From: a virus
Taxonomy: Duplodnaviria; Heunggongvirae; Uroviricota; Caudoviricetes
IMG/VR virus record: IMGVR_UViG_3300022660_000042
DNA: 64,000 nucleotides
Direction: 5' to 3' (one strand)
This document shows, in pieces, positions 1,000 through 38,804 of this stretch. The notes under the pieces were generated by a model. The model saw nothing but the letters and a program-made list of their open reading frames with translations. It was not told the DNA's origin and did no database searches. Position numbers and translations under genes: made by a program. Numbering within the stretch: the first letter of the stretch is position 1; every line of letters begins with the position of its first letter.

Positions 1000-1072
1000 T
1001 TCGTTTTTCCTTTCTATTATATATAAAAATTTTTTTCCTGTTTTCGCAAAATAAACAGCGAGCAGTAACTTG

Positions 1073-1146
1073 TGGAAATAAGAGTTGGACTCGAACCAAC
1101 GATCTTTGCATTGCTGCAACGCTCTAACCAACTGAGCTATCTCATT
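1073..1146 (-). tRNA. Atypical tRNA (Cys-like GCA, T73, encoded CCA) with a 4-6 nt anticodon loop
   Basis: Good acceptor, D and T arms; anticodon arm TTGCA-GCAA-TGCAA. Confidence 0.6.
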
Positions 1147-1193
1147 GATTATAGGAACCGCTTGTGCTGTTCTATTGTGTTTTAACGTTGTTA

Positions 1194-4574: not shown

Positions 4575-4675
4575 AATAATATAGCAAAAGGATTGACTTC
4601 TGTCAACCCTTTAATATTATTTTCTGAAAATTAAACTGACTCAAATAAAAAATCAGTAACCAACTCATATTTTTC

Positions 4676-5284: not shown

Positions 5285-5348
5285 TGTTATTTTTCCTTTT
5301 TCTTTAAATATAAAAAAAGGATTGACTTTCGTCAACCCTTTAATATAG

Positions 5349-5423
5349 TGGAGGCGATTGGAATTGAACCAATCAAGAGAGGAACATTCTGTGCAAAAGT
5401 TGCGGAAAGTAACCTTTGCCCCC
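5349..5423 (-). ncRNA. tRNA-Ala/tmRNA-like acceptor-T minihelix carrying the repeated structured module
   Basis: GGGGGC/GCCTCC with G3:U70 and A73, T arm ATTGG-TTCAATT-CCAAT; no D or anticodon arm. Confidence 0.7.
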
Positions 5424-5428
5424 ATTAG

Positions 5429-5502
5429 TGGATCCAGTGGTATTCGAAACCACAACCTCCCGCTTGCAGGGCGGGTGCTCTGCCAAATTGAGCTATGAAC
5501 CC
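5429..5502 (-). tRNA. tRNA-Ala(TGC)
   Basis: Cloverleaf, G3:U70. Confidence 0.9.
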
Positions 5503-5884: not shown

Positions 5885-5957
5885 AAGCGCATACGGGATT
5901 CGAACCCGTGACCAGCGGCCTTCACACCGCCTGTTCTACCGCCGAACAAAATGCGTT
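5885..5957 (-). tRNA. Degenerate tRNA (His GTG or Phe GAA ambiguous)
   Basis: Good T and D arms; anticodon arm GCGG-TGTGAAGG-CCGC is irregular. Confidence 0.5.
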
Positions 5958-5968
5958 ATCAGTTTTAG

Positions 5969-6042
5969 TGGACACATATGGGATTCGAACCCATGACGTT
6001 TTCCCTGCCAGGGAAACATTCTACCAACTGAATTAATGGCCC
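5969..6042 (-). tRNA. tRNA-Ala(GGC)
   Basis: G3:U70; 1-nt bulge in acceptor; near duplicate of 6137..6210. Confidence 0.85.
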
Positions 6043-6136: not shown

Positions 6137-6210
6137 TGGACACATATGGGATTCGAACCCATGACGTTCTGCGTGCAAAGCAGACATTCTACCAACTGAA
6201 TTAATGGCCC
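6137..6210 (-). tRNA. tRNA-Ala(TGC)
   Basis: G3:U70; same body as 5969..6042 with a different anticodon arm. Confidence 0.85.
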
Positions 6211-6303: not shown

Positions 6304-6377
6304 TGCCAAGTTCCGGAGTCGAACCGGATTTCTGGGATTTTCAGTCCCGTCCATTCCCACGATTGGATGCCATGGCA
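6304..6377 (-). tRNA. tRNA-Phe(GAA), atypical D arm
   Basis: Loop CT-GAA-AA; mismatches in acceptor. Confidence 0.7.
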
Positions 6378-6734: not shown

Positions 6735-6846
6735 TGGGGAAGGCAGGATTCGAACCTACGACACACGCCTTGGAATGGAAATAGGAACGTTATATGCATT
6801 TCTACGAAACGTAAATACCGTTGCTCTACCACTGAGCTACTTCCCC
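6735..6846 (-). tRNA. tRNA-like gene with a 40-nt structured insertion; spliced form would read ACGCC-ATTCCAA-GGCGT (TCC)
   Basis: Perfect acceptor, D and T arms; the insert contains the repeated module. Confidence 0.7.
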
Positions 6847-6976: not shown

Positions 6977-7091
6977 CCGGCGAGACTGGATTCGAACCAA
7001 TAACCCAAAGTACCCTTTAGATAGGAAGCATTGGTGCTGAAAGCGAATACTAAATCTTAAACTTTTGCTCTACCGATTGAGCTACTCGCCG
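6977..7091 (-). tRNA. tRNA-like gene with a 49-nt anticodon loop containing the module; anticodon unresolved
   Basis: CGGCGAG/CTCGCCG acceptor, AAAGT/ACTTT anticodon stem. Confidence 0.7.
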
Positions 7092-7201: not shown

Positions 7202-8539
7202 TTATTGTAACTTTTTTTCCTCCTTCAAGTTTTTTCTGGAACGTTCTTTTTGTTCTTCAAGTAACTTGTTGAAACCGTCAAGGTCAACGGTAAGGTTATG
7301 CTGTTCACAAAGCATTTGTGTCAAGTCGACAGGAAAACCATAAGTATCATAAAGCTTGAAAGAATCAAAACCAGACAATACATTTCCATCCATCTTGGAA
7401 ACAATATTGTTAAACTGCTTGATTCCGCTATCAAGGTTCTTCAAGAATCTTGATTCTTCATTCTTGATAACTTCAGTTACGAATTCTTGTCTTTCCTTAA
7501 TTTCCGGATATACGTCACCCATTACGTCGATAACAACCGGAACGAGCTTATACATAAACGGTTCATTGATATTTAACATCTTGCAGAACAAAGAACCTCT
7601 GCGAAGAAGCCTTCTCAATACATATCCGCTTCCCTTATTAGAAGGCTGAAGTCCGTCAGTAATAGAAAATACAAGAGAACGAATATGGTCACTGATAACC
7701 CTGTGAGGCGTGCCGGATTCATCATTCTTATATTCTACACCGCTAAGTTCAACAATCTTATCAATAAGTGGTTTAAACAAGTCGGTTTCATAATTACCGT
7801 TTGTATTCTGAAGAATAGAACAAATACGTTCAAATCCCATACCGGTGTCGATATTCTTCGTAGTCAACGGAATAAGCGTTCCATCAGAAAGTCTTTCTTT
7901 CTCCATGAATACAATATTCCAGATTTCTACGTAACGGTCATTTTCACCGTTTACACCAAGGATAGGATCCTTGAATGTTTCTTCTTGAGTATTCAAATCG
8001 CCACGGTCATAATGAATTTCAGAACAGGGACCGCATGGACCAGTATCACCCATTTCCCAGAAGTTATCTTTTTCTCCGAATCTCATAATACGGTCATCAG
8101 GTAGATTGGAAACTTCCTTCCAGATTTTCCAACTTTCATCATCGGTCTTATAAACAGAAACAAACAATCTTTCCTTAGGTAACTTCCATACTTTCGTTAA
8201 AAGCTCCCAAGACCAAGAAATAGATTCCTTTTTATAATAGTCATTGAAAGACCAGTTTCCAAGCATTTCAAAGAACGTATGATGATAGTTATCACGACCG
8301 ACAACATCGAGGTCATTATGCTTTCCAGATACACGTAAGCATTTCTGGCTGTTACATACACGTTTTAATCCTTGCGGGTTTTGACCAAAAAAGATTGGTT
8401 TAAACTGGTTCATTCCGGAATTCGTGAATAACAACGTCGGATCGTTATTGGGAATAACGGAAGAAGACTTGATAAACTGATGATTTTTTGACATAAAGAA
8501 ATCAATAAAACTTTTTCTAATTTCGCTCGAGGTAAGCAT
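7202..8539 (-). CDS. alaS: Alanyl-tRNA synthetase, N-terminal aminoacylation domain only (445 aa)
   Basis: DPTLLFTNSGMNQFK, SQKCLRVSGKHNDL, HHTFFEMLGNWSF, DTGMGFERI, FKLYDTYGFPVDLT; stops before the editing domain. Confidence 0.95.
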   Translation of the reverse strand: MLTSSEIRKSFIDFFMSKNHQFIKSSSVIPNNDPTLLFTNSGMNQFKPIFFGQNPQGLKRVCNSQKCLRVSGKHNDLDVVGRDNYHHTFFEMLGNWSFNDYYKKESISWSWELLTKVWKLPKERLFVSVYKTDDESWKIWKEVSNLPDDRIMRFGEKDNFWEMGDTGPCGPCSEIHYDRGDLNTQEETFKDPILGVNGENDRYVEIWNIVFMEKERLSDGTLIPLTTKNIDTGMGFERICSILQNTNGNYETDLFKPLIDKIVELSGVEYKNDESGTPHRVISDHIRSLVFSITDGLQPSNKGSGYVLRRLLRRGSLFCKMLNINEPFMYKLVPVVIDVMGDVYPEIKERQEFVTEVIKNEESRFLKNLDSGIKQFNNIVSKMDGNVLSGFDSFKLYDTYGFPVDLTQMLCEQHNLTVDLDGFNKLLEEQKERSRKNLKEEKKLQ

Positions 8540-14930: not shown

Positions 14931-15043
14931 TCGGAGAGGCACGGCTCGAACGTGCGACCTGCGGGTTATAAGCCATTAATAGGAACAACCTGTGCCATGA
15001 GCGGGTAGTAAAGTACGCTGCTCTACCACTGAGCTACTCTCCA
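14931..15043 (-). tRNA. tRNA with a 41-nt structured insertion; spliced form GCGGG-CTTATAA-CCCGC = tRNA-Ile(TAT)
   Basis: Canonical acceptor, D and T arms; insert lies between nt 29 and 30. Confidence 0.75.
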
Positions 15044-22365: not shown

Positions 22366-22809
22366 TTAATCCTTATAAAGCTGGTATTTCTTACTAAGTT
22401 TATGGCTGATTTCATCCGACAACGGTTTAAACCAGATTCCTACGCGACAACGACCAACACCGTTTTCATCAGTAAATTCCGGAGTAAGTTCAGTCTTACA
22501 TACATCGTCGATAAAACCATAATCAGTACCTTCAACAAGACCGAGTTCTTTAGCAATATCAACAACCTTCATCAAATGATTAAGGTTCTTTGCTTCACAA
22601 ATAGTCTTCGTGAAGATACCGTTAATATAATCTGACATTATATCATTGTCGATAACTATCGATACCAAAGTACCGGGACCGTCATTAAATGGTCTGTTTC
22701 CAGATTTGATAAGATTCATCCAGTAACATTCTGCACAATGCCCTATCATGGCGGCCAGTTTACCACCTGTAAGATGTAAATCTTTTCGAATAATAAATAA
22801 ACGTCTCAT
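22366..22809 (-). CDS. Peptidyl-tRNA hydrolase type 2 (Pth2)
   Basis: IIRKDLHLTGGKLAAMIGHCA, IDDVCKTE. Confidence 0.8.
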   Translation of the reverse strand: MRRLFIIRKDLHLTGGKLAAMIGHCAECYWMNLIKSGNRPFNDGPGTLVSIVIDNDIMSDYINGIFTKTICEAKNLNHLMKVVDIAKELGLVEGTDYGFIDDVCKTELTPEFTDENGVGRCRVGIWFKPLSDEISHKLSKKYQLYKD

Positions 22810-23696: not shown

Positions 23697-24887
23697 TTAG
23701 AATGCAGCCTTGAAATTATAAACCGGCTTGATAATCTTTTCGATAGAACAAGTAGGTTCAATATTCAACATGATTTCTTCCATCGGCTTATAGGCCATAG
23801 GAGACTCATCGATAGTCGCAGAAGAAACACAAGAGGTAAAGATTCCCTTCATTGCTTCCTTATAATCCTTCATGGAAATAGAATTCTTGGCATCTGCACG
23901 AGTCATCAAACGACCGGCACCATGAGGAGCAGAATAGTTCCATTCCGGATTTCCCTTACCGACGCAAATCAAAGAACCATCACGCATATTCATCGGAATA
24001 ATGACACGTTCGCCTTCCTGTGCAGAAATAGAACCCTTACGGAGAATCATATTCTTGAGGTCGATATAGTTATGGATAGTTTCAAATTTTTCTACAACCT
24101 TGAATCCCATTTCCTTGACGATAACATCAAGCATGGCTGCACGGTTCATAACTGCAAACTGCTGGACAATTTCCATATCATGCAGATAACCTTCCATGTG
24201 CTCACCAGTCAAATAAGACAAATTCTTAGGAACGGAGAAATGGTCATAATCCTTCATGAGTTCCTTAATTTCTGCATCAGTCTTTCCTTGATTCTTATAC
24301 TTAGCAATTTCGGCACCACGAATGGCTGTCAAATCAGCACAATCCTTGATTGCGATATTCTGCCAGTATTCACAAGTAGCTACGCCCAAATGGCGTGAAC
24401 CGGAATGGATAACAACATAGAAAGCACCATCGTCGTCCTTATCTACTTCAATGAAATGGTTGCCTCCGCCGAGTGAACCTATAGATAAAAGCTCTTCACG
24501 GCGAACATCTGCAATAAGCTGTTCAAACTTTTCATCGAATTCATTACCGAAACGGTGACGGTTAGTACGATGTTCCTTACCGGACGGAATCTTTTCCTTG
24601 ATAACCTTATCGAGCTTACCAAATTCGATAAACTTATCCTTGAGCTTTGCAACCAACATTCCGCAACCAATATCGACTCCAACAAGATTAGGAACAACCT
24701 TATCCTTGATAGTCATAGTGGTTCCGACAGTACAATCCTTACCCGCATGCACGTCAGGCATGATAGCGACATTAACATCCCTTGCCCAACATTGACACAT
24801 CATATTCAAAATCTGTGAATATGCAGCATTATCGATGTTATCGGTAAAAACCTTAGCTGTATTATATTTTCCCTGTATATCTAACAT
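23697..24887 (-). CDS. rtcB: RtcB-family RNA ligase
   Basis: IMPDVHAG, VGVDIGCG, GSLGGGNHFIE, HSGSR, HNY, RKG, SAPHGAGR, DESPMAYK. Confidence 0.95.
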   Translation of the reverse strand: MLDIQGKYNTAKVFTDNIDNAAYSQILNMMCQCWARDVNVAIMPDVHAGKDCTVGTTMTIKDKVVPNLVGVDIGCGMLVAKLKDKFIEFGKLDKVIKEKIPSGKEHRTNRHRFGNEFDEKFEQLIADVRREELLSIGSLGGGNHFIEVDKDDDGAFYVVIHSGSRHLGVATCEYWQNIAIKDCADLTAIRGAEIAKYKNQGKTDAEIKELMKDYDHFSVPKNLSYLTGEHMEGYLHDMEIVQQFAVMNRAAMLDVIVKEMGFKVVEKFETIHNYIDLKNMILRKGSISAQEGERVIIPMNMRDGSLICVGKGNPEWNYSAPHGAGRLMTRADAKNSISMKDYKEAMKGIFTSCVSSATIDESPMAYKPMEEIMLNIEPTCSIEKIIKPVYNFKAAF

Positions 24888-35154: not shown

Positions 35155-35455
35155 GTTGAACGGAGAGATCTAGCCTAGCAGGAATCACTAGACTAAACAC
35201 AGCTACTCTACTTTTGGCATAAAGTTTCGCGTGTCAATCTGGGGGACTTATGAACACTCTTACTGGTCGGTCATCCTGTACTCAGGCTACATAGTGTTCA
35301 GCCATGGCGGCAAGTGTATAGTTTGCTAAGCTATACTCGATAATCGAATCGCCTTTAACGTATACTTCCGATTTCAAAGTATACAGCGGCTTAGCCTCTA
35401 CCGATAATACCATTGGATTGGATTTCGTTCCGAGGACTAAGGCTCGAATGTCAGG
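35155..35455 (-). ncRNA. Candidate large structured ncRNA
   Basis: About 300 nt without ORF, TATATT at its 5' end, many hairpins. Confidence 0.5.
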
Positions 35456-38425: not shown

Positions 38426-38450
38426 AGTATGTTTCCTTTTTAAATTTTAA

Positions 38451-38804
38451 TGGACCCGTTGGGAGTCGAACCCAAGTCTTGAATAACTTCAATATCCGTT
38501 CCTACAAGCTTTCCCTTCGAATTTACTTATTTGTCATACCTATGCCCTGAAGGTCGGCGTCGGTATAAACTAGCCTGTGATTTTCGGAAATAATAGACAG
38601 ACTTAACTATTTCCTAGCCCATTTGCGACTGGACTCTACACCCAACGGGCGAACGATATAGGTCCAGGGTTGCTATTGATTAAGCAGCCATTGCGTATGT
38701 ATTAGCAATTATTGTTTTCAGACTTTTTAACGTGTGTTTTCCCTCGTCTGAGACCACGGCTTGCAACTAATATATTCATCACCCAATCGAAACCAGGCGA
38801 GCCC
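38451..38804 (-). ncRNA. ssrA: tmRNA, tag (A)ANTYAMAA* at 38680-38706
   Basis: 5' GGGCTCGCCTGGTTTCGA, 3' GGGTTCGACTCCCAACGGGTCCA, G3:U70, resume context ATAATT-GCT, 354 nt. Confidence 0.92.

Follow-up and report, generated by a model that had tools for sequence, protein, structure and literature searches.

A conserved anticodon-less RNA with alanine acceptor determinants in the tRNA arrays of a large rumen phage lineage

What is the 75-nt RNA gene that stands behind a tRNA-Ala gene in a phage tRNA array, carries the acceptor marks of an alanine tRNA and has no anticodon? The locus is found in a 64,000-nt stretch of phage DNA (termed the window; coordinates given without a record name refer to it). 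The source record is a 411,059-bp IMG/VR virus that is ~98% complete, and the phage occurs in metagenomes of bovine and sheep gut and faeces. The parts of the RNA gene (termed the element) and the features around it are as follows.

5349–5423, minus strand: the whole 75-nt tRNA-like RNA gene, defined by its sequence, its fold and 12 conserved variants.
5418–5423, minus strand: 5′ strand of the acceptor, GGGGGC (RNA positions 1–6), including G1, G2, G3 and G4 of the alanine set; invariant in 12/12 variants and paired in 100% of alignment cells.
5380–5415, minus strand: side arm, a copy of the module (RNA positions 9–44); it matches the module regular expression and shows a compensatory change of C19-G35 to U-A.
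5375–5379, minus strand: linker (RNA positions 45–49), whose sequence and length (3–9 nt) differ between relatives.
5356–5374, minus strand: T arm (RNA positions 50–68) with a 6-bp stem and a UUCAAUU loop; pair 50-68 is G-C, U-A or A-U.
5349–5355, minus strand: 3′ strand of the acceptor, GCCUCC (RNA positions 69–74), and the discriminator A75; U72 faces G3.
5424–5502, minus strand: spacer CUAAU (5 nt) and the upstream tRNA-Ala(UGC), in the same transcription unit as the element.
5316–5341, minus strand: terminator-like hairpin and U run, beginning 7 nt past the element.
7202–8539, minus strand: catalytic fragment of a phage alanyl-tRNA synthetase (AlaRS), 445 aa, without the editing or C-Ala domain; a possible charging enzyme, not an obligate one.

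Position p of the 75-mer corresponds to window coordinate 5423 − p + 1. The sequence, coordinates and minus strand of the 75-mer are as described in the first-pass annotation, and the predicted fold agrees with the GGGGGC/GCCUCC-A acceptor with G3·U70 and the T arm reported there. RNAfold gives a three-way fold with a minimum free energy of −23.4 kcal/mol (z = −3.15 against dinucleotide shuffles), and shuffles of the window give 0.00 matches to the architecture pattern by chance. The acceptor helix is of 6 bp and includes G1-C, G2-C, G3·U and G4-C; it is followed by an unpaired A73. The U72 of the 75-mer that lies opposite G3 makes this pair 3:70 in tRNA numbering. The T stem, GAUUGG/CCAAUC, is also of 6 bp and encloses a canonical 7-nt loop, UUCAAUU. 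The element thus has the discriminator and acceptor stacked on a TΨC-type T arm (6 + 6 bp), i.e. a tRNA top half.

RNA positions 9–44 form a single hairpin, which takes the place of the D arm, the anticodon arm and the variable region. Its base is closed by A9-U44, G10-C43 and G11-C42, and A7 is unpaired. The arm consists of an X arm, UUAC-N4-C-GC, and a Y arm, GC-ANN-N4-GU-UCCU, with a 6-bp helix and a 1×3 internal loop. An alternative pairing of AAGG with UCUU of the linker is not kept among relatives. As there is no anticodon, the RNA cannot read codons.

The acceptor-branch determinants of bacterial tRNA-Ala are A73, G2-C71, G3·U70 and G4-C69 (PMC9976931, Table 1, where alanine identity is reviewed). 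The element has this full set, invariant in 12/12 variants; the core alanine determinant G20 has no counterpart in it. Minihelices with G3·U70 alanine marks are charged by AlaRS, and with minihelix-Ala the acceptor-branch determinants alone are enough for alanylation in vitro. Synthetic minihelix-Ala and microhelix-Ala were reportedly described as AlaRS substrates by Francklyn and Schimmel in 1989. The element shares with minihelix-Ala the 12-bp acceptor/T stack, G3·U70 and A73. It differs from that laboratory construct in being a natural gene and in carrying a 36-nt arm (unless this is spliced out). The complete acceptor-branch set, its conservation and the position in a tRNA array bear out the initial proposal of a non-decoding RNA with alanine identity.

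Pattern scans of viral and metagenome contigs yielded 12 distinct variants of the element, which differ by up to 11% and were aligned. In this alignment 97.3% of the cells in pairs are paired and there are 0 pair-breaking substitutions, whereas slid-register controls give 32–59% paired and 0 double changes. Compensatory changes are present at 19-35 (C-G/U-A), 50-68 (G-C/U-A/A-U) and 51-67 (A-U/G-C). Positions 1–18, including A7–G11, are invariant, and the remaining variation is limited to the hairpin loop, the internal loop and the linker. The total length is 73, 75 or 79 nt, and the indels (−2/+4 nt) are in the linker alone; this excludes a coding reading of the element. From the covarying pair 50-68 it also follows that the acceptor branch has 6 + 6 bp and an unpaired A7, and not 7 + 5 bp as it was first drawn. 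As the acceptor is invariant among fairly close relatives, selection on G3·U70 is inseparable from general conservation.

One contig from an RNA library matches the locus exactly over 80 nt, between flanks unlike those of the window. Thus the element is a conserved island in mosaic arrays. In a blastn search of 50,697 phage records, the matches to the element and the sequence around it were at chance or tRNA level and included no relative; with the flanking gene for an ATPase-like protein as query, one close relative was found. The element is a real, selected, non-decoding RNA gene.

A functionless origin, as a degenerating tRNA-Ala pseudogene or a side product of recombination between cassettes, was considered, given that tRNA genes of this phage swap whole anticodon arms (tRNA-Ala 5970–6042 vs. 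6138–6210) and that HNH endonuclease genes are present in the tRNA region. However, every pair is retained in all variants, which diverge by up to 11% and show compensatory changes, and no tRNA with the same acceptor or T arm was found in the phage or in viral contigs. An ordinary tRNA sharing the 3′ half of the element was likewise not found. Such an origin is disfavoured and appears very improbable.

All 12 variants lie within Ala/Glu/Phe tRNA arrays. The element is located 3–5 nt behind tRNA-Ala(UGC) in 9/12 variants and behind tRNA-Glu(UUC) in the other three; in the window the spacer is the 5 nt CUAAU, which corrects the first description of it. The element had been described as the last RNA of its operon. 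This is so in the window's type and in an L003-type variant, where it is the last RNA before a terminator-like hairpin, but further tRNA genes follow at its 3′ side in 9/12 variants (within 12 nt in four of these). The 3′ trailer starts with CUA, the same as that of the true tRNAs of the array, and CCA is encoded neither by the element nor by these tRNAs. The hairpin at 5316–5341 overlaps a promoter-like site (TTGACG-17-TATATT) of the next gene, which encodes a small ABC/SMC-like ATPase. No gene was found that accompanies the element in every relative and could point to its role.

The motif UAUUAAAGGGUUGAC is present twice on the minus strand, once after the element (5316–5341) and once after the gene that follows (4601–4620). 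At 5316–5341 it comprises the terminator-like hairpin and the −35 part of the promoter-like site.

Several other unusual RNAs are present in the same region. A tRNA-shaped RNA at 6304–6377 (minus strand), called by no tool, has a CUGAAAA loop with the anticodon GAA (Phe), a well-formed T arm and an unusual D region; it lies between an attenuator and the first tRNA-Glu. A tRNA-like gene at 5885–5957 (minus strand) has a 6-nt anticodon loop (ARAGORN: "anticodon ga") and has orthologues in related arrays. The tRNA-Ala(GGC) and tRNA-Ala(UGC) genes at 5970–6042 and 6138–6210 (minus strand) differ only in the 17-nt anticodon arm, as though this arm had been exchanged whole as a cassette. In each of them the 3′ acceptor strand is 8 nt long and needs a bulged U to pair. 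A second alanine-type tRNA-like RNA, of 93 nt, is found ~440–530 nt beyond window position 1 (G000:C1:156464–156557, plus strand). It has G1-C, G2-C, G3·U, A73, a CUAA trailer and a non-canonical body, and scores 20.4 bits with the Rfam tmRNA model. A cow-rumen-2 RNA is present at 35239–35342.

Is the element a member of a known family? ARAGORN finds 25 tRNAs and one tmRNA in the window and does not call the element, in intron mode or not. Rfam at the gathering threshold gives nothing at the locus, and in a permissive scan of 271 nt neither RF00005 nor tmRNA matched the element at E ≤ 10. A 14-bit tmRNA_permuted match in the permissive Rfam scan covered the T arm alone and was not significant. 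The D arm, anticodon arm and 7-nt anticodon loop of a cloverleaf are absent, with one hairpin between the acceptor and the T arm.

The first-pass annotation had pointed to a resemblance to the tRNA-like domain (TLD) of tmRNA. The element does have tmRNA-like traits: the G3·U70 acceptor, A73 and no anticodon arm. With the tmRNA model RF00023, searched in the phage's own genome, the element gave no match at E ≤ 0.1; ordinary tRNAs beside it gave 14–20 bits in the same search. Scores with RF00023 of genuine or candidate TLD-only RNAs from other phages and viral contigs are listed here.

L018: 66.7 bits.
L008: 62.8 bits.
L011: 53.3 bits.
DS6A: 43.2 bits.
L010: 22.7 bits.

Since RF00023 misses the element yet scores these five RNAs at 22.7–66.7 bits, the likeness to tmRNA is architectural only. 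The GGnUUCGAC D-loop signature of tmRNA is absent from the element, and smpB was not found in the 411-kb genome. Thus the resemblance stands for topology and not for sequence or model. The phage has a full-length tmRNA of its own at 38448–38804 (tag ANTYAMAA), whose TLD is unrelated in sequence to the element.

The scans also showed TLD-only tmRNAs of 63–83 nt in ~20 viral contigs (L005–L032), e.g. L018:7356–7423, L008:7454–7530 and L011:4469–4531; these three were tested and are above the Rfam tmRNA gathering score. The RNAs begin with GGGGG(U/C)GAAAGG, followed by a UUCGA-type D-loop analogue, and have a 7-bp G3·U70 acceptor, some with an encoded CCA. They start one base 5′ of the search pattern. 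Most stand alone, distant from tRNA genes.

The closest known relation in kind is the "TLD only" (CDS-less) tmRNA of mycobacteriophage DS6A (PMC4131195, PMC11915505; tmRNA Website). According to a passage in PMC4131195 citing Mao et al. 2009, a molecule similar to the DS6A RNA inhibited tmRNA in E. coli, perhaps by titration of SmpB. The DS6A RNA was located at JN698994 28478–28557 and is 80 nt long. Both RNAs are phage-encoded and of 75–80 nt, with a G3·U70/A73 acceptor, a T arm and one hairpin for the lower half of a tRNA; both have no anticodon and no tag reading frame, and alanylation is presumed for both. They differ in that DS6A and the 63–83-nt viral forms carry the tmRNA D-loop signature and score 43–67 bits with Rfam tmRNA, whereas the element has no match. 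Its acceptor branch is 6/6 and not of the 7/5 DS6A type, its hairpin is an intron-type module, and it is located in a tRNA array, while most of the mini-TLDs stand alone.

The element could in principle be a true TLD-only tmRNA that has diverged. It would then bind the SmpB of the host and block trans-translation or divert it, as has been proposed for DS6A, which serves as a literature precedent. The shared topology (alanine acceptor, a short run of purines with GG, hairpin, T arm) is consistent with this. L010 has the same 6/6 branch with an unpaired A7, and AAAGG follows the acceptor in genuine mini-TLDs of other phages as well. However, the AAAGG common to the element and the viral mini-TLDs is a requirement of the search pattern itself, so that this likeness is forced. 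The model results also speak against such an origin, with neither a tRNA nor a tmRNA match in the permissive scan and none with RF00023, which detects the controls. In addition, the UUCGAC motif is missing, G10-G11 are able to pair with C42-C43, and the phage has an unrelated TLD in its own tmRNA and is without smpB. A diverged TLD-only tmRNA is therefore unlikely.

The side arm, in agreement with the first-pass annotation, is a copy of a repeated module that replaces the D and anticodon arms. The genome contains ~13 copies of the module. All are tied to tRNA-like RNAs and share one strand, and nearly all are located in tRNA regions. The module consists of two arms, X (UUAC-N4-C-GC) and Y (GC-ANN-N4-GU-UCCUAU), and is found in two permutations: in one a loop closes it, in the other it is open and encloses another RNA. 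The arm of the element has the X/Y arms, the covarying 6-bp helix and the 1×3 loop. Three tRNA genes in the window carry the module as an insert.

6735–6846, minus strand: tRNA-Gly(UCC); removal of 40 nt at 29/30 restores the stem ACGCC/GGCGU and the loop AUUCCAA.
14931–15043, minus strand: tRNA-Ile(UAU); removal of 41 nt at 29/30 restores the stem GCGGG/CCCGC.
6977–7091, minus strand: tRNA-Pro(AGG); removal of 42 nt at 33/34 restores the loop UUAGGGU.

Deletion of the module with short spacers restores canonical tRNA-Gly, -Pro and -Ile, and the module is thus the core of a predicted intron in these genes. Relatives retain the exons, and the helix of the insert shows compensatory changes among them. 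The Pro junction is fixed by a relative, L015, which reads UGG where the window reads AGG. Another relative (L004) keeps the Gly intron at 29/30 with a perfect helix, and in L003 the end of the intron helix, AC...GU, is changed to AU...AU. A further copy forms a clamp at 1058–1167 (minus strand), whose module arms flank a tRNA-like RNA at a distance of exactly 4 nt from its 5′ end and from its CCA end. The clamped RNA has no anticodon, a GCAA tetraloop replaces its anticodon loop, and its CCA is encoded. A fixed cut 4 nt from each module arm fits the clamp and some introns, but the spacers range over 3–6 nt and 2–5 nt and this rule was dropped.

Judged from their sequences, the inserts in tRNA-Gly, -Pro and -Ile look like an undescribed class of small tRNA introns, in a phage that encodes RtcB. 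Permissive Rfam scans of the element and of the intron-bearing region gave no family for the module, and no description of such introns in phages was found in the literature. An EndA-type splicing endonuclease and a Ro60/TROVE gene were not found in the 411-kb genome. Comparison with bulge-helix-bulge motifs, K-turns, tetraloop receptors, known small ribozymes, Ro-binding helices, the TTAC ends of IS608 and integron attC sites gave no fit. The nearest known analogue is the protein-spliced tRNA introns of archaea; the phage module differs from these in having no bulge-helix-bulge geometry and no EndA-type gene.

These observations raise another explanation, in which the element bears an intron and is the precursor of a natural alanine minihelix. 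A stretch of 43 nt (RNA positions 7–49), made up of the module and its spacers, would be excised and the exons joined, e.g. by the phage RtcB, to give a 32-nt, perfectly paired acceptor/T helix of 12 bp, ~35 nt with CCA. Several properties are in accord with this. The same module is the removed part in the Gly(UCC), Pro(AGG) and Ile(UAU) genes, the 1058–1167 clamp keeps the same module spacing, and the insert in the element is 41–47 nt compared with 40–44 nt for the introns. Joining position 6 to position 50 gives a continuous 12-bp helix in 12/12 variants; the covarying 50-68 would then be a pair of the product. As in the tRNA-Gly and tRNA-Ile genes, the helix would be continuous but for the insert, which bulges from it, and the ligase RtcB is encoded.

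On the other hand, the module of the element differs from that of the introns. The element has UCCUCU, UCCUAA or UCCUCA where all other module copies keep UCCUAU, i.e. the AU of an otherwise invariant sequence is replaced by CU, AA or CA. A8–G11 show no variation, and three of these bases form the pairs A9-U44, G10-C43 and G11-C42. This AGG/CCU pairing closes the UU/UCCU loop, which is open in introns. The spacer on the Y side is variable in length (1–7 nt). The search of the genome gave no splicing endonuclease, and splicing of the module is a prediction for every copy. The similarity to the phage's module-type introns is thus one of X/Y arms, 1×3 loop, insert size and position as a bulge from a helix, with RtcB present, whereas there is no anticodon arm to restore, UCCUAU is changed, and three base pairs are added. 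Contigs from four metatranscriptome runs, which may derive from DNA and bear on neither transcription, RNA ends nor splicing, show the element and the intron-bearing tRNA genes only in unspliced form, with no joint at any module.

A joint at 6762/6823 in a contig from an RNA library proved to be another tRNA, Asn GUU, with the same top half. In this contig the tRNA-Gly top half is found with an intron-less Asn(GUU) arm.

The explanation as a precursor is possible, though on the doubtful side. The stronger form of it, in which the module is a new small phage tRNA intron handled by protein and the sole product of the element is a natural alanine minihelix of 32–35 nt, is slightly more doubtful still. 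The minihelix could be charged by AlaRS and stay off decoding; it could, e.g., act as a puromycin-like acceptor at empty A sites, with PTH2 releasing the peptide.

Another explanation gives the hairpin the central role. The element would serve as a scaffold to display the module, with the acceptor/T helix as a handle for processing and stability, and the alanine marks would be incidental. All of the ~13 module copies are with tRNA-like RNAs, in two permutations, and within the element the module is conserved to the same degree as the helix ends. However, a G·U exactly at 3:70 together with G1-C72, G2-C71, G4-C69 and A73 is unlikely to be incidental. A search for the module and T arm with some other acceptor turned up nothing beyond the family of the element itself and a spurious coding repeat (L059); all RNAs found with both module and T arm are of the alanine type, always in arrays with tRNA-Ala genes. 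A role as a display scaffold is improbable.

Two other small RNAs are similar to the element by description. The T4 tRNA cluster has the stable RNAs C and D (species 1 and 2), which are not tRNAs and are co-transcribed and co-processed with tRNAs. They are, like the element, small RNAs within a phage tRNA cluster; they have no known function and are not known as alanine-type. YrlA, a bacterial Y RNA-like molecule, has a tRNA-like domain and a Ro60-binding stem with an asymmetric internal loop, and is often encoded with RtcB. The element likewise has a tRNA-shaped part joined to a helix with an asymmetric internal loop. It differs in that YrlA ends in the protein-binding stem and has its acceptor capped by a loop, while the phage is without a TROVE/Ro60 gene and the loop asymmetry of the element is on the opposite strand.

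The truncated phage AlaRS had been suggested as the partner of the element. The enzyme exists: the 445 aa sequence at 7202–8539 (minus strand) covers positions 1–437 of 552 of Pfam tRNA-synt_2c, and its alignment with the catalytic fragments crystallised from the A. aeolicus and E. coli enzymes runs from end to end. However, a complete relative of 415,750 bp (G001) has the element and no AlaRS, and thus the partnership is not obligate. The same relative has no tmRNA above the family threshold. The phage also encodes a PolyA_pol/CCA-type nucleotidyltransferase (G000:C1:77375–77758), PTH2 (22366–22809) and RtcB (23697–24887).

On balance, the element appears to be a functional gene for a non-decoding, alanine-type tRNA mimic. 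The mature RNA is probably the 75-nt form, with the module as a stable arm, although, since the module forms the core of predicted introns in other genes, the 75-nt form may be a precursor only. RNase P, the CCA-adding enzyme, AlaRS and EF-Tu recognise a tRNA by its top half alone. By analogy with this biochemistry, the element would be transcribed together with the tRNAs of the array and freed by RNase P and 3′ trimming. CCA would be added by the host enzyme or the phage nucleotidyltransferase. Alanine would be attached by the AlaRS of the host or, in the present phage, by its own fragment that lacks the editing domain. For AlaRS and RNase P alike, an acceptor branch of 6/6 with A7 unpaired would be a candidate substrate only, and this counts as a point against a functional mimic. 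T-stem composition affects EF-Tu binding, and the A-U- and G·U-rich T stem of the element may bind EF-Tu weakly.

The role of such a mimic can be proposed only speculatively. When alanylated or bound to AlaRS, it may act as a decoy or competitor for readers of the tRNA-Ala or tmRNA top half, e.g. AlaRS, acceptor-directed defence enzymes or the ribosome-rescue machinery. It could also be a donor of alanine outside decoding. The module arm may link the mimic to a phage factor that handles the module in intron-bearing tRNA genes.

A phage-encoded, anticodon-less tRNA mimic of the alanine type is known already, in the literature from DS6A alone. What is new in the element is that it fails both family models, that it has a 6/6 branch, and that an intron-type module is its only side arm. 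It is also new as a constant member of Ala/Glu/Phe arrays, which in this phage lies near an editing-less AlaRS. As the tRNA and tmRNA models both miss it, standard annotation overlooks the element.

Anticodon-less RNAs with alanine identity are the simplest molecules that the translation apparatus still handles as tRNA, and they recur in uncultivated phages. The class of mimics is not limited to derivatives of tmRNA: a 400-kb rumen phage lineage keeps a version that is invisible to the models, fused to an RNA module that behaves like the core of a tRNA intron. The 75-nt and the spliced forms alike would give a non-decoding alanine acceptor. If spliced, the element would provide the first minihelix known from nature and belong to a phage system of tRNA splicing that is so far undescribed. 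If charged, it would offer a tractable handle on phage control of alanine charging, ribosome rescue and tRNA-directed defence.
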